This document shows, in pieces, positions 2,720 through 33,146 of a stretch of 64,000 nucleotides of DNA; the stretch's first letter is position 1; each line of letters starts with the position of its first letter. The notes under the pieces are model-generated. The model had not been told where the DNA came from. It did not search any database and was given only the letters and a program-made list of their open reading frames with translations. The stretch spans positions 1,745,682-1,809,681 of the forward strand of contig NC_069127.1 in assembly GCF_026914265.1 (NCBI RefSeq). The letters are read 5' to 3'. The translations under genes and the position numbers were made by a program. Source of the DNA: Mya arenaria. Taxonomy: Eukaryota.

Positions 2720-2836
2720 ATGGACTTTGATGCTCTTGTCATGGATATTGGATCTGGGATGTCCAAGGCCGGTTTCGCTGGGGACGCAGCTCCGACAGCC
2801 ATTTTCCCTTCCGTTGTTGGTCGACCTAGGAGTCGG
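2720..2836 (+). CDS. Actin-like protein, first coding exon (partial gene)
   Basis: Translation is [39 protein letters not shown]. It matches the actin N-terminus ([29 protein letters not shown]) and ends at a GTTAGT donor close to the conserved codon 41-43 actin intron position. A TATA-like taatatat sits about 35 bp upstream. Confidence 0.5.
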
Positions 2837-6061: not shown

Positions 6062-6178
6062 ATGGACTTTGATGCTCTTGTCATGGATATTGGATCTGGG
6101 ATGTCCAAGGCCGGTTTCGCTGGGGACGCAGCTCCGACAGCCATTTTCCCTTCCGTTGTTGGTCGACCTAGGAGTCGG
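6062..6178 (+). CDS. Actin-like protein first exon, second copy in the duplication
   Basis: Identical coding sequence to 2720-2836, with the same donor. Confidence 0.5.
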
Positions 6179-6593: not shown

Positions 6594-9500
6594 AATAAGG
6601 ACCATAACTCTGGCCTTTGTGATTCTCATATAGTAAGGCCCATTAATCTTGTTTTAACTATTGTTGTATAGTAAGGCCTAAAACAGTGTCTATATGGATT
6701 GTTGTATAGTAAGGCCTATAACAGTGTCTATATGGATTGTTGTATAGTAAGGCCTAAAACAGTGTCTATATGGATTGTTGTATAGTAAGGCCTATAACAG
6801 TGTCTATATGGATTGTTGTATAGTAAGACCTAAAACAGTGTCTATATGGATTGTTGTATAGTAAGGCCTAAAACAGTGTCTATATGGATTGTTGTATAGT
6901 AAGGCCTATAACAGTGTCTATATGGATTGTTGTATAGTAAGGCCTAAAACAGTGTCTATATGGATTGTTGTATAGTAAGGCCTATAACAGTGTCTATATG
7001 GATTGTTGTATAGTAAGGCCTATAACAGTGTCTATATGGATTGTTGTATAGTAAGGCCTAAAACAGTGTCTATATGGATTGTTGTATAGTAAGGCCTATA
7101 ACAGTGTCTATATGGATTGTTGTATAGTAAGGCCTAAAACAGTGTCTATATGGATTGTTGTATAGTAAGGCCTAAAACAGTGTCTATATGGATTGTTGTA
7201 TAGTAAGGCCTAAAACAGTGTCTATATGGATTGTTGTATAGTAAGGCCTATAACAGTGTCTATATGGATTGTTGTATAGTAATCCCTATAACAGTGTCTA
7301 TATGGATTGTTGTATAGTAAGGCCTAAAACAGTGTCTATATGGATTGTTGTATAGTAAGGCCTAAAACAGTGTCTATATGGATTGTTGTATAGTAGGGCC
7401 TAAAACAGTGTCTATATGGATTGTTGTATAGTAAGGCCTATAACAGTGTCTATATGGATTGTTGTATAGTAAGGCCTAAAACAGTGTCTATATGGATTGT
7501 TGTATAGTAATCCCTATAACAGTGTCTATATGGATTGTTGTATAGTAAGGCCTAAAACAGTGTCTATATGGATTCTTGTATAGTAAGGCCTAAAACAGTG
7601 TCTATATGGATTGTTGTATAGTAAGGCCTAAAACAGTGTCTATATGGATTGTTGTATAGTAAGGCCTAAAACAGTGTCTATATGGATTGTTGTATAGTAA
7701 GGCCTAAAACAGTGTCGATATGGATTGTTGTATAGTAAGGCCTAAAACAGTGTCTATATGGATTGTTGTATAGTAAGGCCTAAAACAGTGTCTATATGGA
7801 TTGTTGTATAGTAAGGCCTATAACAGTGTCTATATGGATTGTTGTATAGTAAGGCCTATAACAGTGTCTATATGGATTGTTGTATAGAAAGGCCTATAAC
7901 AGTGTCTGTATGGATTGTTGTATAGTAAGGCCTAAAACAGTGTCTGTATGGATTGTTGTATAGTAAGGCCTAAAACAGTGTCTATATGGATTGTTGTATA
8001 GTAAGGCCTAAAACAGTGTCCATATGGATTGTTGTATAGTAAGGCCTAAAACAGTGTCTATATGGATTGTTGTATAGTAAGGCCTATAACAGTGTCTATA
8101 TGGATTGTTGTATAGTAAGGCCTATAACAGTGTCTATATGGATTGTTGTATAGTATGGCCTATAACAGTGTCTATATGGATTGTTGTATAGTAATCCCTA
8201 TAACAGTGTCTATATGGATTGTTGTATAGTAAGGCCTAAAACAGTGTCTATATGGATTGTTGTATAGTAAGGCCTAAAACAGTGTCTATATGGATTCTTG
8301 TATAGTAAGGCCTAAAACAGTGTCTATATGGATTCTTGTATAGTAAGGCCTAAAACAGTGTCTATATGGATTGTTGTATAGTAAGGCCTAAAACAGTGTC
8401 TATATGGATTGTTGTATAGTAAGGCCTAAAACAGTGTCTATATGGATTCTTGTATAGTAAGGCCTAAAACAGTGTCTATATGGATTGTTGTATAGTAAGG
8501 CCTAAAACAGTGTCTATATGGATTGTTGTATAGTAAGGCCTAAAACAGTGTCTGTATGGATTGTTGTATAGTAAGGCCTAAAACAGTGTCGATATGGATT
8601 GTTGTATAGTAAGGCCTAAAACAGTGTCTATATGGATTGTTGTATAGTAAGGCCTAAAACAGTGTCTATATGGATTGTTGTATAGTAAGGCCTATAACAG
8701 TGTCTATATGGATTGTTGTATAGTAAGGCCTATAACAGTGTCTATATGGATTGTTGTATAGTAAGGCCTATATCAGTGTCTATATGGATTGTTGTATAGT
8801 AAGGCCTAAAACAGTGTAGTAAGGCCTAAAACAGTGTCTATATGGATTGTTGTATAGTAAGGCCTATAACAGTGTCTATATGGATTGTCGTATAGTAAGG
8901 CCTATAACAGTGTCTATATGAATTGTTGTATAGTAAGGCCTATAACAGTGTCTATATGGATTGTCGTATAGTAAGGCCTATAACAGTGTCTATATGGATT
9001 GTTGTATAGTAAGGCCTATAACAGTGTCTATATGGATTGTTGTATAGTAAGGCCTAAAACAGTGTCTATATGGATTGTTGTATAGTAAGGCCTAAAACAG
9101 TGTCTATATGGATTGTTGTATAGTAAGGCCTAAAACAGTGTCTATATGGATTGTTGTATAGTAGGGCCTAAAACAGTGTCTATATGGATTGTTGTATAGT
9201 AAGGCCTAAAACAGTGTCTATATGGATTGTTGTATAGTAAGGCCTAAAACAGTGTCTATATGGATTGTTGTATAGTAAGGCCTAAAACAGTGTCTATATG
9301 GATTGTTGTATAGTAAGGCCTAAAACAGTGTCTATATGGATTGTTGTATAGTAAGGCCTAAAACAGTGTCGATATGGATTGTTGTATAGTAAGGCCTAAA
9401 ACAGTGTCTATATGGATTGTTGTATAGTAAGGCCTAAAACAGTGTCTATATGGATTGTTGTATAGTAAGGCCTATAACAGTGTCTATATGGATTGTTGTA

Positions 9501-10440
9501 TAGTAAGGCCTATAACAGTGTCTATATGGATTGTTGTATAGTAAGGCCTATAACAGTGTCTGTATGGATTGTTGTATAGTAAGGCCTAAAACAGTGTCTG
9601 TATGGATTGTTGTATAGTAAGGCCTAAAACAGTGTCTATATGGATTGTTGTATAGTAAGGCCTAAAACAGTGTAGTAAGGCCTAAAACAGTGTCTATATG
9701 GATTGTTGTATAGTAAGGCCTAAAACAGTGTCTATATGGATTGTTGTATAGTAAGGCCTATAACAGTGTCTATATGGATTGTTGTATAGTAAGGCCTATA
9801 ACAGTGTCTATATGGATTGTTGTATAGTAAGGCCTATAACAGTGTCTATATGGATTGTTGTATAGTAAGGCCTATAACAGTGTCTATATGGATTGTTGTA
9901 TAGTAAGGCCTATAACAGTGTCTATATGGATTGTTGTATAGTAAGGCCTAAAACAGTGTCTATATGGATTGTTGTATAGTAAGGCCTAAAACAGTGTCTA
10001 TATGGATTGTTGTATAGTAAGGCCTAAAACAGTGTCTATATGGATTGTTGTATAGTAAGGCCTAAAACAGTGTCTATATGGATTGTTGTATAGTAAGGCC
10101 TATAACAGTGTCTATATGGATTGTTGTATAGTAAGGCCTAAAACAGTGTCTATATGGATTGTTGTATAGTAAGGCCTATAACAGTGTCTATATGGATTGT
10201 TGTATAGTAAGGCCTAAAACAGTGTCTATATGGATTGTTGTATAGTAAGATCAATAACACTGTCTATATGGATTGCTGTATAGTAAGGACTATAACACTG
10301 TCTATATGGATTGTTGTATAGTAAGGACTATAACACTGTCTATATGGATTGCTGTATAGTAAGGCCCATTGCACTGGCTTTAATAGCTGTTGTAAAGTAA
10401 GGGCCATAACTCTGGATTTTATGATTATTGTTTTATAAAG
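6594..10440. repeat. 38-bp satellite, about 100 units, same family as 3236-3657
   Basis: Highly homogeneous tandem array with alternating cctaaaacag / cctataacag variants and degenerate ends. Confidence 0.95.
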
Positions 10441-11765
10441 TCAAACTCTGACTTTACTGGTGGTTGTATAGTAAAGCCTTTAATGCTTAATATACTGGTT
10501 GTTGTATAGTAAGGCCTTTAATGCTTGATATACTGGTTGTTGTATAGTAAGGCCTATAATGCTTGATATACTGGTGGTTGTATAGTAAGGCCTATAATGC
10601 TTGATATACTGGTTGTTGTATAGTAAGGCCTTTAATATTTGATATACTGGTTGTTGTATCGTAAGGCCTTAAATGTTTGATATACTGGTTGTTGTATAGT
10701 AAGGCCTATAATGCTTGATATACTGGTTGTTGTATAGTAAGGCCTATAATGCTTGATATACTGGTTGTTGTATAGTAAGGCCTATAATGTTTGATATACT
10801 GGTTGTTGTATAGTAAGGCCTTTAATGCTTGATATACTGGTTGTTGTATAGTAAGGCCTATAATGTTTGATATACTGGTTGTTGTATAGTAAGGCCTATA
10901 ATGTTTGATATACTGGTTGTTGTATAGTAAGGCCTTTAATGTTTGATATACTGGTTGTTGTATAGTAAGGCCTTTAATGCTTGATATACTGGTTGTTGTA
11001 TAGTAAGGCCTATAATGTTTGATATACTGATTGTTGTATAGTAAAGCCTATAATGTTTGATATACTGGTTGTTGTATAGTAAGGCCTATAATGTTTGATA
11101 TACTGGTTGTTGTATAGTAAGGCCTATAATGTTTGATATACTGGTTGTTGTATAGTAAGGCCTATAATGTTTGATATACTGGTTGTTGTATAGTAAGGCC
11201 TATAATGTTTGATATACTGGTGGTTGTATAGTAAGGCCTATAATGTTTGATATACTGGTGGTTGTATAGTAAGGCCTTTAATGCTTGATATACTGGTGGT
11301 TGTATAGTAAGGCCTATAATGTTTGATATACTGGTGGTTGTATAGTAAGGCCTATAATGTTTGATATACTGGTGGTTGTATAGTAAGGCCTATAATGTTT
11401 GATATACTGGTTGTTGTATAGTAAGGCCTATAATGCTTGATATACTGGTTGTTGTATAGTAAGGCCTATAATGCTTGATATACTGGTTGTTGTATAGTAA
11501 GGCCTATAATGCTTGATATACTGGTTGTTGTATAGTAAGGCCTTTAATGCTTGATATACTGGTTGTTGTATAGTAAGGCCTATAATGCTTGATATACTGG
11601 TAGTTGTATAGTAAGGCCTTTAATGCTTGATATACTGGTAGTTGTATAGTAAAGCCTTTAATGCTTGAGAATTTTTACTGGTTGTTGTATAGTAAAGCCT
11701 ATAATGCTTGATATACTGGTTGTTGTATAATAAGGCCTATAATGCTTGATATACTGGTTGTTGTA
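10440..11765. repeat. Variant 38-bp satellite (ttgttgtatagtaaggcctataatgYttgatatactgg), about 35 units
   Basis: Shares the 19-bp core ttgttgtatagtaaggcct with the preceding satellite, but the second half of the unit is different. Confidence 0.9.
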
Positions 11766-12289: not shown

Positions 12290-13320
12290 TTGTTAGTATC
12301 TCTAGCAATATGTCTATCTATATATCTTTATTCCCTCACTAAATATGTCTGTCTGTCTGTATCTAAGTCAATACATATCTCTGTATCTCAGTCAATGTAT
12401 CTGTCAATCTCTCGGTCAATATGTCTGTCTGTATCTCAGTCAATGTATCTGTCAATCTCTCAGTCAAAATGCCTGTCTGTATCTTAGTCAGTCAATGTAT
12501 CTGTCAATCTCTCAGTCAGTATGCCTGTCTGTATCTTAGTCAGTCAATGTATCTGTCAATCACTCAGTTAATATGTTTGTCTGTATCTTAGTCAGTCAAG
12601 GTATCTGTCAATCTCTCAGTCAATATGCCTGTCTGTATCTTAGTCAATGTATCTTTTAATCTCATAGTCAATATGCCTGTCTGTATCTTAGTCAATGTAT
12701 CTTTTAATCTCATAGTCAATATGCCTGTCTGTATCTTAGTCAATGTATCTTTTAATCTCATAGTCAATATGTCTGTCTGTATCTTAGTCAAGGTATCCGT
12801 CAATCTCTCAGTCAATATGCCTGTCTGTATCTTAGTCAATGTATCTTTTAATCTCATAGTCAATATGTCTGTCTGTATCTTAGTCAATGTATCTTTTAAT
12901 CTCATAGTCAATATGCCTGTCTGTATCTTAGTCAGTCAATGTATCTGTCAATCTCTCAGTCAGTATGCCTGTCTGTATCTTAGTCAGTCAATGTATCTGT
13001 CAATCACTCAGTTAATATGTTTGTCTGTATCTTAGTCAGTCAAGGTATCTGTCAATCTCTCAGTCAATATGCCTGTCTGTATCTTAGTCAATGTATCTTT
13101 TAATCTCATAGTCAATATGCCTGTCTGTATCTTAGTCAATGTATCTTTTAATCTCATAGTCAATATGCCTGTCTGTATCTTAGTCAATGTATCTTTTAAT
13201 CTCATAGTCAATATGCCTGTCTGTATCTTAGTCAATGTATCTTTTAATCTCATAGTCAATATGTCTGTCTGTATCTTAGTCAATGTATCTTTTAATCTCA
13301 TAGTCAATATGTCTATCTTA
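12290..13320. repeat. 24/48-bp satellite (agtcaatatgcctgtctgtatctt + agtcaatgtatcttttaatctcat)
   Basis: Tandem units read directly from the sequence. The long ORFs here on both strands are repeat artefacts. Confidence 0.95.
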
Positions 13321-13729
13321 GAGTCTGTCTTTAACTTTATCAATGTATTTTTATTAAAATCCAGTTTTTATTAAAGTCAGCGGTCCATATCATGTTTTTG
13401 GCCGGTCCAGACCTCGCCAAAAATATAGAATGGACCGCTGACGTCATCAAACCGGTGAGTGCTGCTTGCAGTTTGCACTAGGACATTTTTTCTCAAGTAA
13501 ACATTATAAGATTTGTTCAATAAAACACATCAAAGGCACTTTAAAATTATTAAATGGTTAAAAGTGTTCGGTAAAATATAAGAAATATAACACACCACTT
13601 CGGGCCATATGAAATTACAAGGACTGGCCAGTCAGCCCCCGAAGGTGAATGGACCTTCATTGGCTAACTGGCCGGTCCTTATATTGTCATATGGCCCTCA
13701 GTGATGTGTTATATTTCTTAACTGTATCT
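13321..13729. mobile_element. Non-satellite insertion of about 410 bp with internal hairpins (MITE-like) interrupting the 24/48-bp satellite
   Basis: Unique sequence between two blocks of the same satellite. It contains a 54-bp inverted repeat (taagaaatataacacaccacttcgggccatatg...catatggccctcagtgatgtgttatatttctta) and a smaller cagcggtccat...atggaccgctg hairpin. Confidence 0.45.
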
Positions 13730-14640
13730 AAGTCAATGTATCTGTCAATCTCTGAGTCAATATGTCTGTCTGTATCTCAGTCAATGTATCTGTCAATCTC
13801 TCAGTCAATATGCCTGTCTGTATCTTAGTCAGTCAATGTATCTGTCAATCTCTGAGTCAATATGTCTGTCTGTATCTCAGTCAATGTATCTGTCAATTTC
13901 TCAGTCAATATGTCTGTCTGTATCTCAGTCAATGTATCTGTCAATCTATTGGGCAGCATGTCTGTTTGTATTTCAGTCAATATGTCTGTCTGTATCTAAG
14001 TCAATGTATCTGTCAATATCTCAGTCAATATGTCTGTCTGTATTTCAGTCAATATGTCTGTCTGTATCTTAGTCAGTCAATGTATCTGTCAATCTTTCAG
14101 TCAATATGCCTGTCTGTATCTCATTCAATATGTCTGTCAATCTTTGAGTCAATATGTTATCTCAGTAAATATGTCCCTCTGTATCTCAGTTAATATGTCT
14201 GTCTGTATCTTAGTCAATGTATCTGTCAATCTCTGAGTCAATATGTCTGTCTGTATCTCAGTCAATGTATCTGTCAATCTCTCAGTCAATAAGTCTGTCT
14301 GTATTTCAGTCAATGTATCTGTCAATCTCTGAGTCAATATGCCTGTCTGTATTTTAGTCAATGTATCTGTCAATCTCTGAGTCAATATGTCTATCTTTAT
14401 CTCAGTCAATATGTCTGTCTGTATCTCAGTCAATGTATCTGTCAATCTCTCAGTCAATAAGTCTGTCTGTATTTCAGTCAATGTATCTGTCAATCTCTGA
14501 GTCAATATGCCTGTCTGTATCTTAGTCAATGTATCTGTCAATCTCTGAGTCAATATGTCTATCTTTATCTCAGTCAATATGTCTGTCTGTATCTCAGTCA
14601 ATGTATCTGTCAATCTCTCAGTCAATCTGTCCATCTGTCC
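13730..14640. repeat. Continuation of the 24/48-bp satellite, with variant subunits
   Basis: Same gtctgtctgtatct / agtcaatgtatctgtcaatctct units as 12290-13320. Confidence 0.95.
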
Positions 14641-14790
14641 ATCCGTCCGTCTGTATTTATGTCTTTCTGTCTGTCTGCCTACCCAACTACATGCTTAGCC
14701 TTGTCTATAAAATTATACTTTTGATTATTTTTATTTATCATCACTAATGATTTAATCTTACATACTATATTAAGTTTTCTTTTCCAATAG

Positions 14791-14904
14791 ACAATGCCCA
14801 TGGAGACTCTGGAACAGAGAGTTGAACCTATTGATTCACCGATTGATTCACCGGTGGAAGAATCAGATGATGATCAGCCTGCATCTAGACAATTGTTCCA
14901 TATG
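14791..14904 (+). CDS. Candidate coding exon, possibly with the initiator ATG at 14794 (MPMETLEQRVEPIDSPIDSPVEESDDDQPASRQLFHM)
   Basis: Acceptor ttttccaatag, an ATG in acaATGc context, and donor gtaatt. The product is acidic and Pro/Ser-rich. It ends in phase 0. Confidence 0.3.
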
Positions 14905-15599
14905 GTAATTTATTATCAACCTCTTAAGATAGATTTATATATTCAGACTATGTGTAGAATAGCAGGTTCAGTCATTTTTCTGTTTATAAACACCTACCTT
15001 TGAATTTCAGGTTGTTGTTTTTTTCTTTACATCTGTCCCAGTTAAAGCTGCGCTCTCACAGATTTACTGTTTTTACGTTTATTATTTTTTTAAACATGGA
15101 TGCGTAAATATCTAAAAACCAATGGTAAAAGATTGCTGACAAAAGATCAGATTTGCATATTTCCGTTCGAAAATTAATGTTTAATGGCTTAAACCATTAC
15201 GAACAGTTAAAGAAAACTGCATAAAACATTAATTTTTGAACTGCAATATAAAAATGTGTGATTTAATTATTTGTCAGCAGTCTTATATCACTAGTTTCGA
15301 TGGATTTTTGCAAGATAAAAATTAAAAAAGTTGTTCTGTCTGTAAGAGTGCAGCTTTAATTGTATAATTTTATTTTTTTATTTTCTTCATTTAAGTATCA
15401 GCAGGTTAACCCACAGAAATACAATGTGTTCAAAAAATTTCTACTGAAATATTACATAAGGCTTGTGATTTGGCTATGTTTTTGCAGATTTCCGCAGATC
15501 TAATGACTTCAGGGATCAAAAATATCATTCATTTGTTTTAGTTACTAAAAAAAGTAAGCTTGCTGCTATTAGTTGTTTCATTGTTTGTTATATATTCTC

Positions 15600-15740
15600 C
15601 AGTTTGTTTAAAATTAGAAATCCACAAAACCCTTAGTCAAGAGAACCCTTAGTCAAGAAAACCCTTTGTCAAGAGAACACTTAGTCAAGAGAACCCTTAG
15701 TCAAAAGAATCATTAGTCAAGAGAACCCTTTGTCATGGGC
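15600..15740. repeat. 19-bp tandem repeat (cccttagtcaagagaaYcc), about 7 units
   Basis: Read directly from the sequence. Confidence 0.85.
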
Positions 15741-16391
15741 ATTATTTGATCTCAAATAGGGTGTAAAACACCCGCAAAAGCCATCGCTGAAATGATTTCA
15801 GCTATTCAGCTTGACTACCAGGGCAATCACATTGCTGGATTCCCATTGATCAAGATCATGCATATATTTTCTACAACCAGCATGTTTCCAGTTAGTCAAT
15901 AATTGGTTTTATTAGGGGGGTAGTTTAGAAGCTCCTGTATGTGGACTGTCTAGGTTATAAGTATTTCACACTCATCACTAAAAAGGCTTCCATTTATTTA
16001 GTCTTTTAAGCCAATATTTCAGTGAGAGGCTGCACCAGCCCTGCCAACTTTAATATTTGTCAGGAAGACCAAAAATTAACACTGACTATTACATGGATAT
16101 AATTGTATAACGTTATGACTTAATTGACAACTAATTCAAATTCCTAAGATCATTCTCATGGTTTAAGAACATTTTTCAAAAAAACACAACATATAGCAAT
16201 CCCAGAAAAAGGTCTAATTCAGGTAAAGATACACCGCATGTAACTGTCATTCAATTTAAAATGATTTGGTAAATTTTCATAACCAAGATTTATCACAATG
16301 GAACCGTTCGACAATGTTTTATAAACAATACAGTATTAGTTTTCAATGTCCCATACAAAACTGTTTTGTTTTTCTTCTGTCTGGACAAAAG

Positions 16392-16609
16392 GCAGTTAGA
16401 GGTGGAAGAACTAGGCAGACTGCCCGCAAGTCCACGGGAGGAAAAGCTCCTAGAGGTCCGTCTCCAGAATTGATCGCCAAAGTTCTGGAACCTGATCAAT
16501 CCGTGGAATATGAAGCATGTGAACTCCAACCTAAGAGGTCCAGATCCAGGGAGCGGGACATATATATGAAAGACTACAGGCCTGATGTATCAGAATATGT
16601 AGTACAACG
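16392..16609 (+). CDS. Coding exon whose product carries a histone H3 N-terminal tail-like stretch (GRTRQTARKSTGGKAPRG)
   Basis: Open frame of 72 codons after the pyrimidine-rich acceptor ...ttcttctgtctggacaaaag, ending at a GTATGT donor. QTARKSTGGKAPR is identical to H3 residues 5-17, but K4 is replaced by R. The rest of the exon (PSPELIAKVLEPDQSVEYEACELQPKRSRSRERDIYMKDYRPDVSEYVVQR) does not resemble histone. Confidence 0.4.
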
Positions 16610-16829
16610 GTATGTATTATTATCATTAATGGTATGAAAAGCATGTTCATAGGTAATCGTTTGAATGCACTCTATCAACTTCTGACAATCAAATGCCTTA
16701 CCCCACTTTTTCCTACATTATCCATTTTTTCCATTTATGGTGAATAATTTCAACTATTCCAGCTTATGTTATGCACTTGTAATTTTAACTAGCTATAATA
16801 TTACCAGCTATTCTGCATTTTGATTTTGC

Positions 16830-17900
16830 CATATAGTTATATATCTTGGGGCTGGCTATTTAAGAGTTGCCCCTCTGTGTCTCATATATCTTGGGGCTGG
16901 CTATTAAGGAGTTGCGTCTGTGTCACATATCTTTGGGCTGGCTATTTAGGAGTTGCCCCTGTCTCATATATCTTGGGGCTGGCTATTTAGGAGTTGCCCC
17001 TGTCTCATTTATCTTTTGGCTGGCAATTTAGGAGTTGCCCTTGTCTCATATATCTTGGGGCTGGCTATTTAGGAGTTGCCTCTGTCTCATATATCTTGGG
17101 GCTGGCTATTTAGGAGTTGCCCCTGTCTCATATATCTTGGGGCTGGCTATTTAGGAGTTGCCCCTGTCTCATATATCTTGGGGCTGGCTATTTAGGAGTT
17201 GCCTCTGTCTCATATATCTTGGGGCTGGCTATTTAGGAGTTGCCTCTGTCTCATATATCTTTGGGCTGGCTATTTAGGAGTTGCCTCTGTCTCATATATC
17301 TTGGGGCTGGCTATTTAGGAGTTGACCCTGTCTCATATATCCTGGGGCTGGCTATTTAGGAGTTGACCCTGTCTCATATATCTTTGGGCTGGCTATTTAG
17401 GAGTTGCCCCTGTCTCATATATCTTGGGGCTGGCTATTTAGGGGCTGCCCCTGTCTCATATATCTTTGGGCTGACTATTTAGGAGTTGCCTCTGTCTCAT
17501 ATATCTTTGGGCTGGCTATTTAGGAGTTGCCTCTGTCTCATATATCTTGGGGCTGGCTATTTAGGAGTTGCCTCTGTCTCATATATCTTGGGGCTTGCTA
17601 TTTAGGAGTTGCCTCTGTCTCATATATTTTGGGGCTGGCTATTTAGGAGTTGCCTCTGTCTCATATATCTTGGGGCTGGCTATTTAGGAGTCGCCTCTTT
17701 CTCATATATCTTGGGGCTGGCTATTTAGGAGTCGCCTCTGTCTCATATATCTTGGGGCTGGCTATTTAGGAGTTGCCTCGGTGTCATATATCTTGAGGCT
17801 GGCTATTTAGGAGTTGCCTCTGTGTCATATATCTTGGAGCTGGCTATTAAGGAGTTGCCTCTCTCTCATATATCTTGGGGCTGGCTATTTAGAAGTTGCC
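16830..17900. repeat. 42-bp satellite (gctggctatttaggagttgccYctgtctcatatatcttgggg), about 25 units
   Basis: Read directly from the sequence. Confidence 0.95.
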
Positions 17901-18559
17901 TCTGTCTCGTCAATCATACGAGTTAACACCACCTCATGTCATATCACATCCCTGAAAAATCTTGTCATGCGAATAGCTTCAAAAGTATTGCACATATACA
18001 AATGAAACTTCATGTAAAGTTTAATCACCTTGGGAAAGCATGCACCTGTTATTTGTGTGACATGTCACTGACCACTGCACTCTTACTCCTGAATAAGATA
18101 TACTGCAATTAATTTGATATAGTTTAAATATTCCAAAAAGGATGACTAAATTTCGAAAACAATGGTTATTATGAAGGGTAGTGAGTTTAATTTGAATTTT
18201 TTTTTAGCATTAAACACAAGTTTATGAGACTATAGTGGATCACAGGAAACCTTTTAGCATACACCAATCATTTAACATTTTGCCTTTCTGCTATTCAATA
18301 CAAGGTTACATCTTGTTATCAGTCATTTATTACTTCCATAAATGCATTATTTATTAAGTAGTTAAAAGGTTTATCAGTCAAAATGGATGTTTGTTATACA
18401 TGTGTATGCATTGATTTTGAATAAGAGTGTCACTTAAGAGAATAAACGTCTGGACAATACAATTCCTGTGTCCAGGCAGCATCTTGGAAGTTTATCACTT
18501 CTGTAATGGTTCTTGTTTTGCTTTCTAGTTTCTGTAAGTGCGAGTAACATAGAGTTTTT

Positions 18560-19320
18560 ATCATTAGAAAGTTTAGTCACACTTTTTTAGACTCAGAATT
18601 ATGTCAGTTTATAAATCCTTTTGTTTTGAGTCTAGTCCAAGCTTCTTGGACTTAGATATGGGTTTATAAACCTTGTTGTTTTGAGTCCAAGCTTCTTAGA
18701 CACTGATATGGGTTAATGAACCTTACTGTTTTACGTCTAATCCAAACTTCTTGGATTCAGGTATGGGTTTTATTTTTAAGTCCAGTCCAAGCTTCTTAGA
18801 CTCAGATATGGGTTTAAATAGCTTGTTATTTTTAAGTTTATTTAAAGCTTCTTATCTTCAGATATGGGTTTATAGACATGGTTGTTTTGAAGTCTTGTCC
18901 AAGCTTCTTAGTCTCAGATATGGGGATATAAACCTTGTTGTTTTTAAGTTTATTTAAAGGTTCTTAGCTTCAGATATGGGTTTATATACATTGTTGTTTT
19001 TAAGTCTAGTCCAAGATCCTTTGCCTCAGATTTGGGTTTATTAACCTTGTTGTTTTGATTCTAGACCAAGCTTCTCAGACTCTGATATGGGTTTATAAAC
19101 CTTATTGTTTCAACGTCTTTTCCAAGCATCTTAGACCCTGAAATGGGTTTATAAACCTTGTTGTTTTGATTCTAGACCAAACTTCTCAGACTCTGATATG
19201 GGTTTATAAACCTTATTGTTTCAACGTCTTTTTCAAGCTTCTCAGACTCTGAAACGGGTTTATAAACCTTGTTGTTTTAAGTCAAGTTTAAGCTTTTTGG
19301 ACTCAGGTATGAGTTTATAA
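18560..19320. repeat. Satellite of about 58 bp (gggtttataaaccttgttgttttgagtctagtccaagcttcttagactcagatatg), about 12 units
   Basis: Read directly from the sequence. The units are more diverged than in the other arrays. Confidence 0.85.
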
Positions 19321-19501
19321 ATCTTGAAATAGAAATTCTTAATGGACATGTGTTTTAAAATCAAATGAAATCTAACAATAAATATATTTTTATGCATATT
19401 GTTTGATTTTATTTCGGATATTTATTTATGAAATCAAATGAAATGTCTTAACTTACTCTATAATGAAGAAGAACAAATTTTAAAATCTTACATTTTTGCA
19501 G

Positions 19502-19536
19502 GAAAATGAGATTTGATCCATCCTCTTCCCCTGAAT
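19502..19536 (+). CDS. Candidate 35-bp micro-exon (..KMRFDPSSSPE..)
   Basis: Textbook acceptor (ttttgcag) and donor (gtaagt). Its phase (needs 1 nt in, leaves 1 nt out) fits between the 16.4 kb and 22.3 kb exons. Confidence 0.2.
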
Positions 19537-19989
19537 GTAAGTTGCAAATATATTTGTTCTTTCAAGATAATCAAAGGCTTGGTTAAAAAAAATTCTCTAA
19601 TAACTGTGACATTTTTCATTAAATGATACCAAAATTATTTGTTTGTATTTAAAAAAAGTTTATAGACTTGTGTTTTGAGTTTAGAATTCACTTTTAATCA
19701 AACAAACAAGAATAGTGTAGTACCAGGTGGGATAGAAGGGTACTGGGCCACATTTCTAGGTCAATGACTAAAGTCTATGAAACCAGCTCAGCACACTAGT
19801 TACATTTTGATATAATTGTATAACATTGGTCTTAAAATGCCTATAAGCTGCAGCATTAAAGTAACAAAAGATCGTTTATTTTAAAACCCCAAAAATATTA
19901 ACATTTACATTTCTTGATTTTTGTTGAGAAATTGTTTCCTGGCAGCGGTGTCCTCATGATAATAGTCAATATTCCCTTAAACAGATCAA

Positions 19990-21850
19990 TTCTAAACTCT
20001 GAAGAGGCATGTATATGTTACATTGGAATACCCAAATCACATGTACTCTTCAACCAGCCCAAATCTATACTTATGTGCTACAATCCGAAATTCATGCTGC
20101 AAATGTGCTACAACTCCAAATTCATAAACTAATGTATTACAGCCCCATATTCATAAAACTAATGTGTAACAACCCCAAATTCATAGTCCTAAAGTGTTAC
20201 AGCCCCAAATTCATTGACTAATGTTTTACAACCCCAAATTCATAAACTAATGTGTAACAACCTCAAATTCATAGTCCTAAAGTGTCAAAGCCCCAAATTC
20301 ATAAACTAATGTTTTACAACCCCAAATTCATAGTACTTATTGCTACAACCACAAATTCATAGTTCTAATTGCTACGACCCCAAACTCATAGTACTAATTG
20401 CTACAACACCAAATTCATAGTACTAATTGCTACAACGCCAAATTCATAGTTCTAGTGTGTTATAACCCACAATTCATAGTACTAATTGCTACAACCCCAA
20501 ATTCATAGTACTAATTGCAACAACCCCAAATTTATAGTACTACTGTGTTACAACCCCAAATTCATAGTACTAATTGCTACAACGCCAAATTCATAGTACT
20601 TAAATGTGCTACAACCCCAAATTCACTATGCTAATTGCTACAACCCCAAATTCATAGTTCTAGTGTGTTACAACCCCAAATTCAAAGTACTAATTGCTAC
20701 AACCCCAAATTCATAGTATTAATTGCTACAACCCCAAATTCATAGTACTAATTGCTACAACCCCAAATTCATAGTTCTAGTGTGTTATAACCCACAATTC
20801 ATAGTACTAATTGCTACAACCCCAAATTCATAGTTCTAGTGTGTTATAACCCACAATTCATAGTACTAATTGCTACATCCCCAAATTCATACTTCTATTG
20901 TGTTATAACCCACAATTCATAGTACTAATTGCTACAACCCCAAATTCATAGTATTAATTGCTACAACCCCAAATTCATAGTATTAATTGCTACAACCCCA
21001 AATTCATAGTTCTAGTGTGTTATAACCCACAATTCATAGTACTAATTGCTACAACCCCAAATTCATAGTATTAATTGCTACAACCCCAAATTCATAGTAC
21101 TAATTGCTACAACCCCAAATTCATAGTTCTAGTGTGTTATAACCCACAATTCATAGTACTAATTGCTACAACCCCAAATTTATAGTACTAATTGCAACAA
21201 CCCCAAATTTATAGTACTACTGTGTTACAACCCCAAATTCATAGTACTAATTGCTACAACCCCAAATTCATAGTACTTAAATGTGCTACAACCCCAAATT
21301 CACTATGCTAATTGCTACAACCCCAAATTCATAGTTCTAGTGTGTTACAACCCCAAATTCAAAGTACTAATTGCTACAACCCCAAATTCATAGTATTAAT
21401 TGCTACAACCCCAAATTCATAGTATTAATTGCTACAACCCCAAATTCATAGTACTAGTGTGTTACTACCACAAATTCATAGTACTAATTGCTACAATCCC
21501 AAATTCATAGTAATAGTGTGTTATAACCCCAAATTCATAGTACTAATTGCTACAACCCCAAATTCATAGTACTAGTGTGTTACAACCCCAAACTCATAGT
21601 ACTAAATGCTACAACCCCAAATTCATAGTACTTGTGTGTTATAACCCCAAATTCATAGTACTAATTGCTACAACCCCAAATTCATAGTACTAATTGCTAC
21701 AACCCCAAATTTATAGTACTTATGTGCTACAACACCAAATTCATAGTACTAATTGCTACAACTCCAAATTCATAGTACTAATGTGTTACAACACCAAATT
21801 CATAGTACTAATATGCTACAACACCAAATTCATAGTACTAATGCGCTACA
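19990..21850. repeat. 29-bp satellite (ctaattgctacaaccccaaattcatagta) with a higher-order variant (ttctagtgtgttataacccacaattcatagta), about 60 units
   Basis: Read directly from the sequence. Confidence 0.95.
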
Positions 21851-22288
21851 ACCCTTAATTCTTATACTTAAGTGTTTCAATCTTGGCAAATATAATTCTG
21901 TAAGCTGGATAGGCATTGACATAGGATTTGGCAAAACTGGAAACAATCATGAGACCCTTAATGTCAGCCAAGTAATCGCTTTTGTAATCATATTTTCCTG
22001 TTCTCAATGAAGTGGTTAAAACATATGTAAAAATGTATGGGAATATTTGTAAACAAAGGTGATTGCAATTCATAAATATAAGATAGTTAAGCACATGCTT
22101 TTTGCTATATAGATATGATTGCAGTATAGAATGGAAAATTGAACCTCGGTCAAGTTGTGCTGCTGGTTACTGGGCATGTCCTTTACCAGCCTGATTATGT
22201 GCCCTTGGACTGGATTTGCTAAATCCTCACACAATCACATAACATTTATTATTCTTACTTATATCACTTTTGTTTTTGTGTACTTCAG

Positions 22289-22480
22289 CCTCTAAGCTTG
22301 GTAGAGATGTAAAAATGTCAGAGGACACTAACCTCGCAGTGTTAGAGTCACATGATAATGATAAGGAGGAAATGAGGATTGTAGGAGGTGGAGCCTCTTC
22401 CCTCTTGATGGATGAGGGAGAAGAAGAGGAGGAGAATGAGGAGGACGAGGATATGGGGTTTGGCCTGTTTGATGATGATG
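22289..22480 (+). CDS. Coding exon with a ribosomal stalk P-protein-like acidic tail (IVGGGASSLLMDEGEEEEENEEDEDMGFGLFDDD)
   Basis: Acceptor tgtacttcag and donor gtgagt. The EEDEDMGFGLFD stretch matches the conserved C-terminus of P0/P1/P2 proteins, but here it is internal, followed by DDD and a splice donor. Phase: needs 2 nt in, leaves 1 nt out. Confidence 0.4.
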
Positions 22481-22885: not shown

Positions 22886-24480
22886 TTATGCCCCCCTTCG
22901 AAGAAGAGGGGTATATTGCTTTGCACAGGCATGTCGGTATGTCGGTCGGTCGGTCGGTCCGTCGGTAGACCAAAGCTTGTCCGAGTGATAACTCAACAAT
23001 TCCTGGACGTATGGTCATCAAACTTCACATGAAGGTTGGGCCTAACCAGTAGATGACCCCTATTGTTGTGATAATTTTAAAGCTTGTCCGAGTGATAACT
23101 CAACAATGCCTGCACCCATGGCCCTCAAACTTGACATGGAGGTTGGGCCTGACCAGTAGATGACCCCTATTGTTTTTAGGGATCATCAGGCCAAAGGTCA
23201 AGGTCACAGTGACCTTGAATGGTAAAAGGTTGTCCGAGTGATAACGTGACAATGCATGCACCCATCAAACTTGACTTGGAAGTTGGGCCTGACCAGTAGA
23301 TGACCCCTATTGTTTTCGGGGGTCATTGGGCCAAAGGTCAAGGTCACAGTGACCTTTAATGGTAAAAGGTTGTCCGATAGATAACTCAACAATGCCTGCA
23401 CCCATGGCCCTCAAACTTGACTTGGAGAATTGGCCTGACCAGGAGATGACCCCTATGGTTTTTGAGGGTCATCTGGCCAAAGGTCAAGGTCACAGTTACC
23501 TGGAATGGTAAAAGGTTGTCCGAGTGATAACTCGACAATGCCTGCACCCATGGCCCTCAAACTTGACTTGGAGGTTGGGCCTAGCCAGAAGATGGTCCCA
23601 ATTGATTTAAGGGGTCATTGGGCCAAAGGTCAAGGTCACAGTGACCTGGAATGGTAAAAGGTTATCTGAGTGATAACTTGACAATGGCTGCACCCATGGC
23701 CCTCAAACTTGATTTGGAGGTTGAGCTTGGCCAGAAGATTGTCCCTATTAATTGTAGGGGTCATTGGGTCAAAGGTCAAGGTCACAGTGACCTTGAATGA
23801 TAATAGGTTGTCCAAGTGATAACTCAACAATGCCTGCACCCATGGCCCTGAAACTTGACATGGAGGTTGGGCCTGACCAGTAGATGACCTCTATTGATTT
23901 TAGGGTCAAAGGTCAAAGTCACAGTGACCTTGAAAGCAAACTCGACAATTCTTGGACCTATGGTCATCAAACTTGACATGAAGGTTGGGTCTGAACAGTA
24001 GATGACCCCTATCGACTTTGGGGGTCATCAGGCCAAGGTCAATGTCACAGTAACCTTTAACGCAAAAAAGAACAAATCTTCCCCCACTGATATCTCAACA
24101 ATGCCTGAACCTATGATCATTAAACTTGACATGGATGTTAAGCCTGAACAGTAGATCACCCTTATTGATTTAGGATTCATAGAGCTAAAGGTTAAGGTCA
24201 CAGTGATCTTGAATGGTAAAAGGTTGTCCGAGTGATAACTCAACAATGCCTGAACCTGTGGCCTTCAAACTTGACTTGGAGTTGCATCTGACTTGAAGAC
24301 TTATGATTTAAGGGGTCATCCAGTCAAAGGTCAAGGTCACAGTGACCTTGAACAAAAAAAAACTTGTCTTGTGATAACTTGACAATGCCTGCACCCATGG
24401 CCCTCAAACTTGACATTTAGGTTTCTGGTGACCAGCTGATGACTCTGGATTTTGAGTTCATAGAGTCAAAGGTCATGACG
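22886..24480. mobile_element. Composite pearl-like element: hairpin head (ttatgccccccttcgaagaagaggggtatat), (GTCG/GTCC)n microsatellite, then about 12 tandem 125-bp units
   Basis: Each unit contains ggccaaaggtcaaggtcacagtgacct. The same head, tetranucleotide and tandem-unit architecture recurs at 41320 and 42690. It resembles published bivalve pearl/CvA-type elements (from memory). Confidence 0.6.
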
Positions 24481-24839: not shown

Positions 24840-26400
24840 TGTAGGCTATCTCTTGGTTATCAGAGATGGGTATGAGGCCGTCATGAGAAACATCTGTATC
24901 TTTGGGTTATCAGAGCTGGGTATGAGGTCCCACAAACATCTGGGGTATAAGATTTGGATGAGGCAGCCAAAAACATCTGTGGTGTATAAGATCTGGATAT
25001 GAAGCAGCCATAAACATATGTGAGGTAAAAGATCTGTGTATGGAGAAGTCAGGAACAATTGTGGTGTGCAATTGTGAGTTGTCAGATCTAGATATGAAGG
25101 GACCAGGAACATCTGTGGGGTATATGATCTGGGTATGAGGCAGTAAGGAACATATGTGAGATAAAATATCTTAGTATAAGGCAGCCGTAAACATCTGTGG
25201 GGTATAAAATCTGAGTAAGAGCATCAATAAAGATCTGTTAGGTATAAGATCTGGGTATGAGGTAGCCATAAACATCAGTGGGGTATAAGATCTGGGTATA
25301 AACCAACCATAAACATCTGTGGAGTATAAGATCTTGGAATATAGGGAGCCATGAAAATGTGTGGAGCGTAAGAAAAGGGTATGAAGCAGCCTGAAACATC
25401 TGAGGGTTATAAGATCCGGGTATGATGCAGCAAGAAACATCTGAGGGGTATAACATCATGGTATGACGCAGCCAGAAACATCTGTGTGTGAGGTACAAGA
25501 TCCAGGTTTGAGGTGGCCAGAAACATCTGTGGTGTATAAGATCTGGGTATGAGGCAGGATTTTTTTTTTGTGGGGAATAATATCTGGGTATGAGGCAGCC
25601 AAAACCATCTGTGAGGTATGAGATCTGGGTATGAGGCAGCCATAAACTTCTGAGGGGTATAAGATCTGGGTATGAGGCAGCAAGAAACATCTGCGGGGTA
25701 TTACATCATGGTATTTAGCAGCCAAAAACATCGGTGGGGTATAAGATCTGGATATGAGGCAGCCAGAAACATCTGTGGGGTATAACAACATGGTATGACA
25801 CACCCAAAACATCTTTGGGGTATAAGATCCGGGTTTGAGGCAGCCAGTAACATCTGTGGTGTAAAAGATCTGGGTATCAGGTAGCCAGAAACACCTGTGG
25901 GGTATTATATCTGAGTATGACGCAGTCAGAAACATCTGTGGGGTATAAGATCTGGGTTTGAGGTGGCTAGAAACATCTTTAGTGTACAAGATCGGGGTAT
26001 GTCGCAGCAATAAACATCTGTGGAGTGATCTGGGTATGAGGCAGCCAGTAACATCTGAGGTGTATACTATCTGTTTATGAGGCAGCCAGTAACATCTGTG
26101 GTGTAAAGATCTGGGTATGAGGTAGCCAGAAACATCTGTGGTGTATAGGATCTGGGTATGAGGTAGCCAGAAACATCTGTGGTGTAAAGATCTGGGTATG
26201 AGGTAGCCAGTAACATCTGTGGTGTAAAGATCTGGGTATGAGGTAGCCAGAAACATCTGTGGTGTAAAGATCTGGGTATGAGGTAGCCAGAAACATCTGT
26301 GGTGTAAAGATCTGGGTATGAGGTAGCCAGAAACATCTGTGGTGTAAAGATCTGGGTATGAGGTAGCCAGAAACATCTGTGGTGTATAGGATCTGGGTAT
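24840..26400. repeat. 40-bp satellite (atctgggtatgaggtagccagaaacatctgtggtgtaaag), about 38 units
   Basis: Read directly from the sequence. The 317-aa minus-strand ORF here is a repeat artefact. Confidence 0.95.
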
Positions 26401-26892
26401 GAGGCCCATTACTCAGTATTTATTACCCATTACTTGTTCAGAATGGTCATTAATATTCCCATCATTCACATTCACAAGTTGTGAAGCAAGAAGAGAGAAG
26501 AGATCAGTTCAGTCCCATAATCAATAAGTTTCTTGTGCTCATTAATAGGGGTTTCCTGTTCATATTTGGTCTGATTTTGATATTGACAGTTCCAAATTTC
26601 ACTTGATTTGATGAAATGTATTTTTCAACCTGATAATCATGCAAGTGTTAGCCTTTTTCTCTTTGTAAAAAGTGTATTCTGGTGGACAACTTCTTAGGTC
26701 TAAATACTAAAAGATGATCTTATAAATAAATTCCAAGATAAGTATAAGTTTAGGATATTTCCTTTAAAATGTTAAGGTTAAGATATTTTACAAAAAACAG
26801 AAATCAATATTAAATTAAATTACAGCCAGATTTTTTACGTTCAAGTATGAATATCCCTTTTTGATAAACAATGTTGTTTTCTTTTTTTCTAG

Positions 26893-27729
26893 CAGAAGAT
26901 GCTTTAGATACAACCAAATCTAAAATGAATTTTGGAGAAAAACAGACTGCCATCACAGCTTCTTTTGCACACAAAATTGATGCTCAGGATGAAAGCAAGC
27001 AAGGACCTCCAGCAGTTTCATGGAGAAAAGTTGGTGAACCAAGATATCACTCAACAACAGCAGTATTGGGGAAGAATTCTGCATTTGAATTTGGGCTTCA
27101 ACAAACGCTCATGGAAAGAACAAGTTACAAACCACAGGCTTTTGGAGAAATTTGTTCAGCACCACCACCGCCACCTTTCCCTCAACAGGGAGGCTACTTT
27201 AGGCCCTACAGTCAACAATCTAGTAACCTTGCTTCCAATGGGCGTCATGCAACACTACAGTTCACGCAAAATGCAGAGCTTCCACCTCCAGGAGCACCGC
27301 CTCCTCCAGGTGCGCCTCTGGCTCCACATTTCCGTGCTAAGGTGCTTGCACCACCTCCACCTCCAGGTGCACCACCTTCTCCTCCAGTTGAGCCTCTGGC
27401 TCCACCTATCCATGCTAGGCCCCCTGCACCACCTCTACCTCCAGGTGCACCGCCTTCTTCTCCAGGTGTGTTTCTGGCTCAACCTCTCTCTGTGAAGGCC
27501 CCCGCACCACCTCCACCTCGACGTGCACTATCCAAAAGTCTGGCTCCACCTCTCCCTGCCAGGGCAGCTGCACCACCTCCCACTCGAGGTGCCCCTTCCC
27601 CAACTCTAGGTGCATCTCTGCGCCAAGCTCTCTCAACTGGGACCCCGGCACCACCTCCTACTGGACCTGCTGGCTTGAAAGCTCCACCTCTACAAAAATT
27701 TGCTTCCTGTTCTGTAGTCTCTTACGAAC
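26893..27729 (+). CDS. Large coding exon for a proline-rich, internally repetitive (FH1/WASP-like polyproline) protein segment
   Basis: 279-codon open frame in AT-rich DNA, acceptor ttttctag and donor gtaagt. It contains repeated PPPGAPPxPP(V/L)xPLAPP blocks. Phase: needs 2 nt in, leaves 1 nt out. Confidence 0.55.
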
Positions 27730-31760: not shown

Positions 31761-31946
31761 ATTCAAGAGAGAAATCGGCTCAGCTGCTGTTGTTGGATGT
31801 AACGCCGTTGTCCCTGGGGGTTGAGGTGATGGGCGGGGTCATGCGTGTCATTATACCAAGAAATAGCACCATCCCGACTAAGAAGAATTTGATGTTCTAC
31901 CCTCCTAATGACAGCAATGGGGAAGTTGTAGTGAATGTTTATGAAG
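31761..31946 (+). CDS. Hsp70-family protein, substrate-binding-domain exon A (start uncertain between 31728 and 31761)
   Basis: Translation ..[63 protein letters not shown] aligns with the Hsp70 linker and SBD-beta (DLLLLDVAPLSLGIETAGGVMT.LIKRNTTIPTK...VLIQVYEGER). Donor gttagt. An in-frame stop at 31721 limits the 5' extent. Confidence 0.6.
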
Positions 31947-32222
31947 GTTAGTGTTTGATTCTATATGGTCAATAATGATTGTTATCTAAACATTTTGCCG
32001 ACTTTGTAACAATTTTTTATAACTACTAAAATAGCAAGAAATTAATAGGGAAGTATATATATTGAACAAACCAACCTTTCCCAGAAAATGACCTGACACG
32101 CTTTGCAATCTCCAAACTACACTGCACATTATAGTCATTAATTGTAGTCTATTTTAACTGGTCTTCAATTTGAATACTGTTAGTATTTAGATATTTATTA
32201 TGGTGTTGTTCCTCACTTTCAG

Positions 32223-32408
32223 GAGAGCGCCCACATGTTGTGGACAACCACCATCTCGGCGTTGTAAAGCTTGCTGTTTCCACACCAAGAACGTCTGCAC
32301 CAACTATAAATGTTACGTTTGACATAGATGCAAATGGAATTTTGCGTGTTACAGTTATGGATACAGTTTTGAACACCGTTAACAGTATCCAAATAGCAAA
32401 TGAACAAG
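32223..32408 (+). CDS. Hsp70-family protein, SBD exon B
   Basis: [46 protein letters not shown]...IQIANEQG matches Hsp70 [45 protein letters not shown]...ITITNDKG. Acceptor cctcactttcag and donor gtattg. The phase joins exon A as YEG|ER. Confidence 0.65.
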
Positions 32409-32764
32409 GTATTGTAAATAATTCATATACATTACTATGTGTACATAATATACTATTCCTATATGCTTCTTTCATATTAAGAGTTCCATGAATCACTTTT
32501 TCAAGACTCTGTGCTACATGGGTGTACTTAATCATATGTTTTTGATCCCAAAACATCAAATTACATGTCAGCCATGTGGTCATGATCTTTGTGAATGAAC
32601 ATTAGAGTCTTCTTTGTAAAAACTGATTTGGCTAATAATCATGCTCATCAACAGAAAGTATCATGCAGTATTCATCATTGTATGATTTCACAACAATTTC
32701 TTTTTTACACAATTTAAACAAGTACAACATTGTAAATTAAGTATGTACCGGTATGGTGTTTTAG

Positions 32765-32887
32765 GTCGACTGAGTCGAGAAGAGATTGAGAGGCAGGTGG
32801 GTGGATCGGAACAGTCAAAAGAACTTGATGATACAGTTTGGAAAGCAAACAAGACAAACATGACCTTACCATCACCATATAAAGGAG
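32765..32887 (+). CDS. Hsp70-family protein, exon C (GRLSREEIERQV...)
   Basis: GRLSREEIERQVGGSEQSKELDD matches Hsp70 GRLSKE(E/D)IERMVQEAEKYKAEDE. Acceptor gtgttttag and donor gtaata. The phase is consistent with exons B and D. Confidence 0.6.
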
Positions 32888-33033
32888 GTAATAAAATAAT
32901 ATTATTACCAATACAAAGAATTGCAAAAAGCCCCCAGCTCAGTTACTTTAATAGCAATGTAAAGTAATCATTGTTGTATGGATATTGTATCATTGTGTTT
33001 ATTTACTAAACAGTCTTGTTTTTTGTTCTTCAG

Positions 33034-33146
33034 AAGAGGTTCACCTCGAGGAATATGGAATAGGAGTGTCTTTTAGTACATGTGTCTCGGGAAAGTCATC
33101 CTTGACTCTTGCAAATATCACACGATTGTTGCAATTACAAAACAAG
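33034..33146 (+). CDS. Hsp70-family protein, exon D (divergent lid region)
   Basis: Open frame EEVHLEEYGIGVSFSTCVSGKSSLTLANITRLLQLQNK. Acceptor ttttttgttcttcag and donor gttagc. Phase consistent. Confidence 0.45.

Follow-up and report, generated by a model that had tools for sequence, protein, structure and literature searches.

A predicted exon that carries an almost exact histone H3 tail sequence among gene fragments of a Mya arenaria locus

How does a nearly unaltered piece of the histone H3 tail come to lie in a predicted exon that is otherwise unlike any histone, and might it act there as a histone mimic? The question arises in a 64,000-nt stretch of Mya arenaria DNA (contig NC_069127.1, positions 1,745,682 to 1,809,681 of the forward strand; hereafter the window, whose own numbering is used throughout), where a predicted internal coding exon of 218 nt occupies 16392..16609 on the + strand, entered in phase 0 and left in phase 2 as judged from its open frame, splice signals and G+C content. 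Its frame 0 translation, AVRGGRTRQTARKSTGGKAPRGPSPELIAKVLEPDQSVEYEACELQPKRSRSRERDIYMKDYRPDVSEYVVQ, contains GGRTRQTARKSTGGKAPRG; the two alternative frames hold 3 and 12 stops. The explanation that we favor, with a probability of roughly 0.5, is that a mosaic locus restricted to one lineage holds, in one of its exons, a fragment captured from H3, with mimic activity possible but incidental. On this account, ~50 nt of an H3 gene (codons 1/2-17) would have been captured into a coding-type exon, most likely at the DNA level by fragment duplication, exon shuffling or transduplication. The host locus would be a lineage-restricted and mostly disordered mosaic whose parts lie on one strand in compatible phases, in the order actin first exon (twice), H3 N-terminal tail, ribosomal P-stalk C-terminal tail, proline-rich exon and HSP70 substrate-binding domain.

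The H3-derived segment, G-RTRQTARKSTGGKAPR (16404..16454, +), aligns to H3 A1-R17 over 17 codons; tblastn of H3.3 against the window matched A1-R17 at 15/17 positions with E 4.7e-5. H3 residues 2-17 are identical at 15 of 16 positions, with R2 and T3 kept and K4>R as the sole mismatch. A sequence-only reading of this DNA had reported 13 of 13 identities to H3 residues 5-17, with K4 replaced by R and the run cut off before K18. Translation and tblastn bear out the exact 13-mer (Q5-R17, 16416-16454) and extend the match to R2 and T3; the K4 replacement is read from an AGG codon (16413-16415), G stands at position 18, and A1 is likewise changed to G. A search of PDB chains with the exon product returned only H3 chains and H3 peptides, and tblastn, Pfam and PDB searches show no likeness to histones in the other ~55 residues, as the same reading had held. 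G+C content at third codon positions (GC3) is 0.41 in the 17 H3-like codons versus 0.36 in the remainder of the exon. Two peptides can be set apart within the product: STGGKAPRGPSPELIAK, which is unique to exon 16392-16609, and GGRTRQTARKSTGGKAPRGPS, the peptide form of the H3-like run.

Chance resemblance, or convergence of a basic low-complexity stretch, would account for the ARKS tetrapeptide, which is expected by chance about once per window. The exact QTARKSTGGKAPR, on the other hand, has a chance probability of ~1.5e-18 per position at the window's base composition, and any H3 13-mer is expected ~4e-7 times per 1-Gb genome; the BLOSUM-based E-value quoted above thus understates the significance of the run. 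From this probability it follows that the run, a genuine copy, came from an H3 gene; convergence across 13-16 residues is not credible, and the probability left to coincidence is negligible. A copy might also be the visible end of an H3 gene that has decayed, or of a processed pseudogene, reaching past the exon. Pseudogenes are a frequent by-product of the multi-copy H3 genes, and by eye, granting an insertion of three residues, ELIAK after the run faintly resembles QLATK. Against this, a full-length H3 tblastn in all six frames (word size 2, E<=10) found nothing past residue 17 at the site and nothing credible elsewhere in the 64 kb, Pfam gave no Histone (PF00125) match on the exon product, and neither a poly(A) tract nor frame-shifted H3 codons were seen downstream of the run. 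Only 17 codons match, they bear no disablement, and there is no further H3 piece in the 64 kb; the lack of H3 similarity beyond residues 1-17 thus rules out a decayed gene or retro-pseudogene at this site, and we hold an origin of that kind to be highly improbable. The sequence-only reading had named a decayed H3 retro-pseudogene reaching beyond the exon as the finding that would overturn it, and the tblastn search did not find one. Its alternative of an exonised histone pseudogene fragment survives in part: the captured H3 piece in an exon stands and is favored by the neighboring fragments described below, while the extended pseudogene does not. Nor, as had been stated, is the locus an intronless histone gene, for the run sits in an internal-exon-like segment; no histone fold follows the tail, the tail is not at a processed N-terminus, and K4 is absent.

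Is the segment that carries the copy an exon? The open frame around it spans 16260-16634 (125 codons), in DNA of a composition at which an estimated ~7% of random codons are stops. G+C content is 0.49 in the exon and 0.32 and 0.30 in its flanks, and in 40-nt steps it is 0.33 just before 16392, 0.55 from that very position, and down to 0.25 at 16592-16631. The 167 non-H3 nt are raised in G+C as well, beyond the 51 H3-like nt, so the exon is not merely a GC-rich scrap of histone gene in AT-rich DNA. Values at the three codon positions (GC1/2/3) are 0.57/0.50/0.38, a GC1>GC2>GC3 periodicity, and the surrounding 2.1-kb island (14700-16840) is single-copy within the window. The splice context agrees with what had been described, a pyrimidine-rich acceptor and a GTATGT donor, both read directly: the acceptor region (16362..16391, +) has the tract ttttgtttttcttctgtct followed by ggacaaaag/ (slashes mark exon boundaries), the acceptor itself reads tgttttgtttttcttctgtctggacaaaag/G, and the donor is ACG/gtatgt (16610..16615, +). 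The segment is thus an AG/GT-bounded open frame with a composition contrast to its introns.

An upstream partner is predicted at 14791..14904 (+), with an ATG at 14794 that has A at -3. It encodes (T)MPMETLEQRVEPIDSPIDSPVEESDDDQPASRQLFHM, leaves in phase 0, has a strong acceptor (ttttccaatag/) and the donor ATG/gtaatt, and shows a rise of G+C at both of its ends. The two segments join in frame as MPMETLEQRVEPIDSPIDSPVEESDDDQPASRQLFHM/AVRGGRTRQTARKS..., which places the H3-like run internally, preceded by AVRG and possibly by the 37 residues of this upstream exon. On balance, these signals suggest that 14791-14904 and 16392-16609 are real spliced coding exons of some transcript. An exact look-up of the mechanically called open reading frame (ORF) gave no record, and the exon product is probably an orphan, disordered sequence. 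The upstream exon also includes EESDDD, an acidic hexamer found just ahead of MGFGLFD in ribosomal P proteins; this may be coincidence, and EESDDD is a casein-kinase-2-type site as well.

What else the + strand holds bears directly on how the copy arrived. Besides H3, it carries pieces of three further abundant conserved proteins, actin, ribosomal P-stalk and HSP70, and the exon-like islands downstream have G+C contents of 0.41-0.52. A second tail copy lies 6 kb downstream of the H3-like exon, in a predicted exon at 22289..22480 (+; phase 1 in and out) that encodes ...MDEGEEEEENEEDEDMGFGLFDDD. Its P-stalk tail segment, EEDEDMGFGLFD (within 22408-22480), is followed by DD and a GTGAGT donor and is thus internal, not C-terminal. 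The C-terminal tail of ribosomal P0/P1/P2 is invariant, and MGFGLFD at 22453-22473 matches it at 7/7 residues by tblastn, with 3e-5 occurrences of this exact 7-mer expected in the window. In a PDB search of the exon, 25 of 26 matches were ribosomal P0/P1/P2 chains, with P-protein C-termini matched in all three alignments shown, and Pfam Ribosomal_60s matched at E 6.5e-4, which falls short of the curated cut-off. An ATG in the same frame, at 22315, might be the start of a separate downstream gene. The internal P-stalk-tail-like segment can be written as the peptide EEDEDMGFGLFDDD.

Farther along lies a predicted proline-rich exon of 279 codons (26893..27729, +; phase 1 in and out), called from its open frame and in frame with 22480; neither a Pfam family nor a homologue was found for it. 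Its repeated PPPPPGAPP and APPLP units resemble formin FH1 or WASP-type profilin/SH3-binding tracts. An HSP70 substrate-binding domain follows at 31761..33146 (+) in four exons predicted by tblastn and Pfam (31761-31946, 32223-32408, 32765-32887 and 33034-33146), with 45-56% identity to HSPA8 383-530 by tblastn and a Pfam HSP70 match to the model at E 2.5e-32 (profile 379-531). Its junctions are canonical GT-AG, all in phase 1, and no stop or frameshift occurs across the four exons. The part is ~50% diverged and yet intact, which suggests that at least this stretch is under coding constraint, now or recently, and argues that some of the mosaic has been under such constraint. HSPA8 1-382, the ATPase domain, has no tblastn match anywhere in the window, which rules out a full HSP70 gene. 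The substrate-binding domain could have an ORF of its own, beginning at an in-frame ATG at 31739, and the HSP70 part may run on to a stop at 36666.

The actin piece was found with a small panel of other abundant proteins searched against the window, in which H4, H2A, H2B, H1, ubiquitin, calmodulin and the RNA polymerase II C-terminal domain repeat had no matches; Pfam was run on stop-free segments, and minus-strand ORFs were inspected by eye. An actin-like first coding exon, predicted by tblastn and Pfam, begins at ATG 2720 (2720..2836, +; 39 residues, then the donor gttagt), and an identical second copy lies at 6062..6178 (+) within a ~3.34-kb tandem duplication. Both copies have 70% identity to ACTB 2-41 (E 7.6e-12; Pfam Actin E 1.9e-7), and there are no other actin exons in the window. 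The exon ends in phase 0 at the classical codon 41/42 intron position, compatible with exon 14791, with which it might share a transcript.

We thus find unrelated gene fragments in one orientation at one locus. The co-occurrence of four abundant-protein fragments speaks for capture or partial duplication of fragments as a general process, not for a purpose-built mimic; it favors DNA-level capture over a purpose-evolved mimic and makes a mundane origin likely. Structurally, the nearest class appears to be that of chimeric genes assembled from captured fragments, by partial segmental duplication or by Helitron or Pack-MULE transduplication, in which, as here, unrelated fragments lie in one orientation and can be threaded into one frame. 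As in such genes, some of the window's fragments still end as their native exons do: actin has its donor at codon 41/42, and the HSP70 exons are spliced. Unlike the Helitron and Pack-MULE classes, the window yielded neither transposon termini, for which no search was made, nor transposase or helicase genes, and the locus exceeds 30 kb with satellite-filled introns, unlike chimeric captured-fragment genes.

Can these islands be read as a single gene? Nine GT-AG exons can be threaded into an uninterrupted frame of 667 aa if a micro-exon is included, and all junctions from 22480 onward are in phase 1. The tentative micro-exon, proposed from phase fit, has 35 nt (19502..19536, +; ttgcag/GAAAATG...CTGAAT/gtaagt) and would link the phase-2 exit of 16392-16609 to the phase-1 acceptor at 22289; of the six candidates of compatible phase outside the satellites in 16610-22288, it has the best splice signals (cag, GTAAGT). 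We regard one continuous gene across the islands as a tentative model, somewhat short of even odds.

Does anything elsewhere resemble the exon product? The 110-aa product of 14791-14904 and 16392-16609 gave no match at E<=0.01 in a word-indexed search, and neither the non-H3 peptide nor an exact 27-nt DNA word was found in metagenome contigs; the exons at 22.3 kb and 26.9 kb likewise have no homologue. Exhaustive HMMER comparison with 1.84 billion representative proteins gave seven matches at E<=1e-3, in each of which the best stretch coincides at least in part with the H3-like run; for P0006, which holds full H3 copies, and for P0002, compared by BLASTP, the similarity runs through the H3 motif alone. 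The closest database relatives of the HSP70 part are generic HSP70 proteins at only 52-54% identity, so the proteins of this genome evidently lie outside the searched collections, and the missing orthologue is weak negative evidence. A protein search of the kind that the sequence-only reading had proposed as its check yielded, in such collections, no conserved homologue of the non-H3 part, and conservation of the motif in orthologues meets the same limit, with no homologue of the flanking residues found in them.

The seven matches do supply a precedent. Five are uncharacterised ORFs with three or four internal copies of the H3 tail (Peniophora KZV74085.1, Ceratobasidium KAF8603043.1 and the unnamed Logan/ENA/JGI sequences P0001, P0002 and P0007); the other two are a Cooperia tandem-fragment model and a duplicated H3 from Brassica. 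At one locus of Peniophora sp. (KV424483.1, L001), five coding copies of the H3 N-terminal tail lie at 4016-6967 in annotated hypothetical genes, with a real H3 gene directly downstream (8127-8655). Like the exon, the H3-tail-repeat ORFs are non-histone, carry internal copies of H3 ~2-17 among disordered linkers, and often differ at position 1 or 4 (GRTRQTAR in P0002). They have 3-4 copies, against a single one in the window, whose 64 kb include no H3 gene, and P0002 has no BLASTP similarity to the exon product outside the motif. The existence of these ORFs means that other reading frames do acquire copies of 5' pieces from H3 genes, a precedent for capture of the H3 5' end that supports our preferred explanation. 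They are the nearest sequences to the exon. We know of no description of this class of ORF, and a full-text literature search for RTRQTARKS found no paper.

If the exon is translated, what could the run do? HP1 chromodomains contact H3 5-10 (QTARKS), GCN5-type acetyltransferases read the G-K14-x-P context, and 14-3-3 proteins bind ARKpS; QTARKS, the G-K14-x-P context and ARKS are all present in the exon product. In a translated product the QTARKS stretch would suit HP1-type chromodomains, RKS would be an Aurora-type phospho-acceptor, and GGKAP would provide the K14 context, making the run a candidate internal pseudo-substrate or competitor, selective for H3K9/S10/K14. Readers of the PHD and other types that need the free H3 N-terminus or K4 could not engage it, since it is internal with G at 1 and R at 4. 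The decoy or substrate function that the sequence-only reading had raised is, then, a proposal from motif logic.

Functionally, the nearest class is that of endogenous H3K9-type mimics, for the exon product holds an exact TARKSTG outside a histone, and the minimal site of G9a/GLP is H3 6-11 TARKSTG, with R8 essential (PMC8541646). Methylated H3K9-like motifs in G9a/GLP, ATF7IP and LIG1 recruit HP1, MPP8 and UHRF1, and binding is blocked once Aurora B has phosphorylated the next residue (PMC9768651); PMC2175347, PMC6172828 and two 2025 SETDB1 preprints (automethylation motifs) report further H3K9-like mimics. As here, such motifs (G9a K165/K185, GLP K205, ATF7IP K16, LIG1 K126 and those of SETDB1) place an internal A-R-K-S/T in a disordered non-histone region; they are 4-7 residues long and look convergent, whereas the run in the window is a 16-residue, near-exact, H3-derived copy known from DNA sequence alone. 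Viral proteins such as influenza NS1 (ARSK tail) and SARS-CoV-2 ORF8 (ARKS, disputed) likewise bear short H3-like motifs that are proposed to sequester chromatin factors (PMC6028506, 10.1101/2021.11.10.468057, PMC10833455); those are pathogen proteins acting on a host, whereas the window is a cellular locus with a far longer copy and, on present evidence, no host-pathogen logic. H3 R2 and T3 are shared with the N-terminal mimics read by PHD fingers (PAF15-type, M-Z-R-X-K N-termini), which need a processed free N-terminus and K4 (PMC8166343). The rule for that class, M-[AGSCTPV]-R-x-K at the N-terminus, does not describe an internal run that reads RTR and not RTK, and Pfam gave no PAF match on the exon product. 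The run thus differs from all described mimics found in our literature search in being a long homologous copy and not a short convergent motif.

Several observations weigh against capture into an exon of a mosaic gene. The exon, its splicing and its transcription are predictions from the DNA; the AAG acceptor at 16392 is suboptimal (A at -3, weaker than YAG), with its pyrimidine tract 10-30 nt upstream; and no homologue of the non-H3 residues appeared among the 1.84 billion representative proteins, in the word-indexed search or in the metagenome contigs. Near-perfect retention of H3 could equally mean a very recent capture without function. The phase-2 exit at 16609 joined to the strong acceptor at 22289 gives ...VVQRL and a stop two codons past the junction, which rules out that direct splice, so a single-gene model requires either the micro-exon or the weaker acceptor at 22305. 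The HSP70 junction, likewise, requires the weak acceptor at 31761, since the strong one (exon start 31708) terminates the frame. The junctions were chosen to fit, so the phase argument is moderate, and the actin exon, lying in a 3.3-kb tandem repeat, may belong to the repeat and not to a gene.

Alternatively, the locus would be an untranscribed, non-coding relic, a graveyard of duplicated fragments in satellite DNA whose pseudo-exons have a residual or fortuitous frame and splice-like signals. Satellites lie on either side of every exon island, no homologues were found, several junctions need weak sites or a micro-exon where strong acceptors give stops, the actin fragment sits within a tandem repeat, and an open frame of 125 codons is expected, by estimate, ~0.7 times per 64 kb in six frames. 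Such a relic would not readily account for the sharp G+C steps where both 14791-14904 and 16392-16609 are predicted to begin and end, the raised G+C of the 167 non-H3 nt, the codon periodicity, the in-frame join of two segments of which the first has the ATG, or an HSP70 part that is ~50% diverged with frames and splice sites intact over four exons. We consider the relic unlikely, while taking it more seriously than any other rival. A dedicated endogenous mimic, the main idea of the sequence-only reading, would be an expressed nuclear protein in which selection keeps the run as a decoy for, or a substrate of, H3K9 methyltransferases, HP1-type readers, S10 kinases or K14 acetyltransferases. It would explain why 15 of 16 residues are kept with no frameshift amid unrelated flanks, why the complete TARKSTG site and ARKS switch are present, and why the changes at 1, 4 and 18 do away with just those features on which N-terminus and K4 readers rely, and with the K18 context. 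By eye, a basic KRSRSRER stretch downstream is a candidate nuclear localisation signal, and the H3 (88%) and P-stalk (~85%) motifs are better conserved than the actin (70%) and HSP70 (~50%) fragments of the locus. Set against these points, no orthologue was found on which constraint (dN/dS) could be tested, known endogenous mimics are convergent motifs of 4-7 residues and not 16-residue copies, and the co-occurring housekeeping-gene fragments suggest a general capture process. To keep 15 of 16 residues over long periods would take nearly all of H3's own constraints, and recent capture is simpler; a dedicated mimic is slightly less likely still. More ambitiously, the actin N-terminus, H3 N-tail and P-stalk C-tail, as near-exact copies of interaction tails that abundant host proteins expose, with the proline-rich linker and HSP70 substrate-binding domain, might form a single translated "multi-tail" protein serving as a decoy or trap for tail-targeting enzymes, toxins or effectors. 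Its targets could be, for example, H3K9/S10 writers and the ribosome-inactivating proteins that use the P-stalk tail as a docking site, in an animal counterpart of integrated-decoy logic. We think this improbable.

If the captured fragment is expressed, it would be by far the longest endogenous copy of a histone tail in a non-histone protein, and one acquired by capture rather than convergence; confirmed expression of a 16-residue H3 copy would surprise chromatin specialists. Such a protein would offer a natural separation of H3 functions, with the K9/S10/K14 context kept and the free N-terminus and K4 lost, and antibodies against H3K9me, S10ph and K14ac are expected to cross-react with it. 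Taken with the H3-tail-repeat ORFs from fungi and nematodes, the exon suggests that the copying of H3 5' ends into other frames is a recurrent, unstudied event. If it is not expressed, the exon is one more gene fragment in satellite-rich DNA.

The window is AT-rich, and the satellites that flank every exon island on both sides can be resolved into seven tandem-repeat arrays, which occupy the spaces between the exon-like islands, six different arrays filling the introns or spacers that separate the pieces of the four abundant proteins: 38 bp x121 at 7000-11623, 24/48/96 bp at 12352-14638, 41 bp x26 at 16839-17908, 56/111 bp at 18773-19321, 29/59 bp x61 at 20068-21868, 146/292 bp at 23079-24414 and 41 bp x32 at 25084-26405. 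G+C skew is strongly positive at 6-12 kb and strongly negative at 20-22 kb. Farther downstream, ORFs of a long interspersed element (LINE) type reverse transcriptase, broken into several frames, lie at 46214-47453 (+; Pfam RVT_1 E 2.6e-21), with ORFs from 45391. Near the end of the window, an ORF on the minus strand (63383-63580) that contains ...HLGDPGSIPGLG... has the pattern of a translated tRNA-derived short interspersed element (SINE; T-arm GGTTCGATCCC) and probably marks a SINE insertion.

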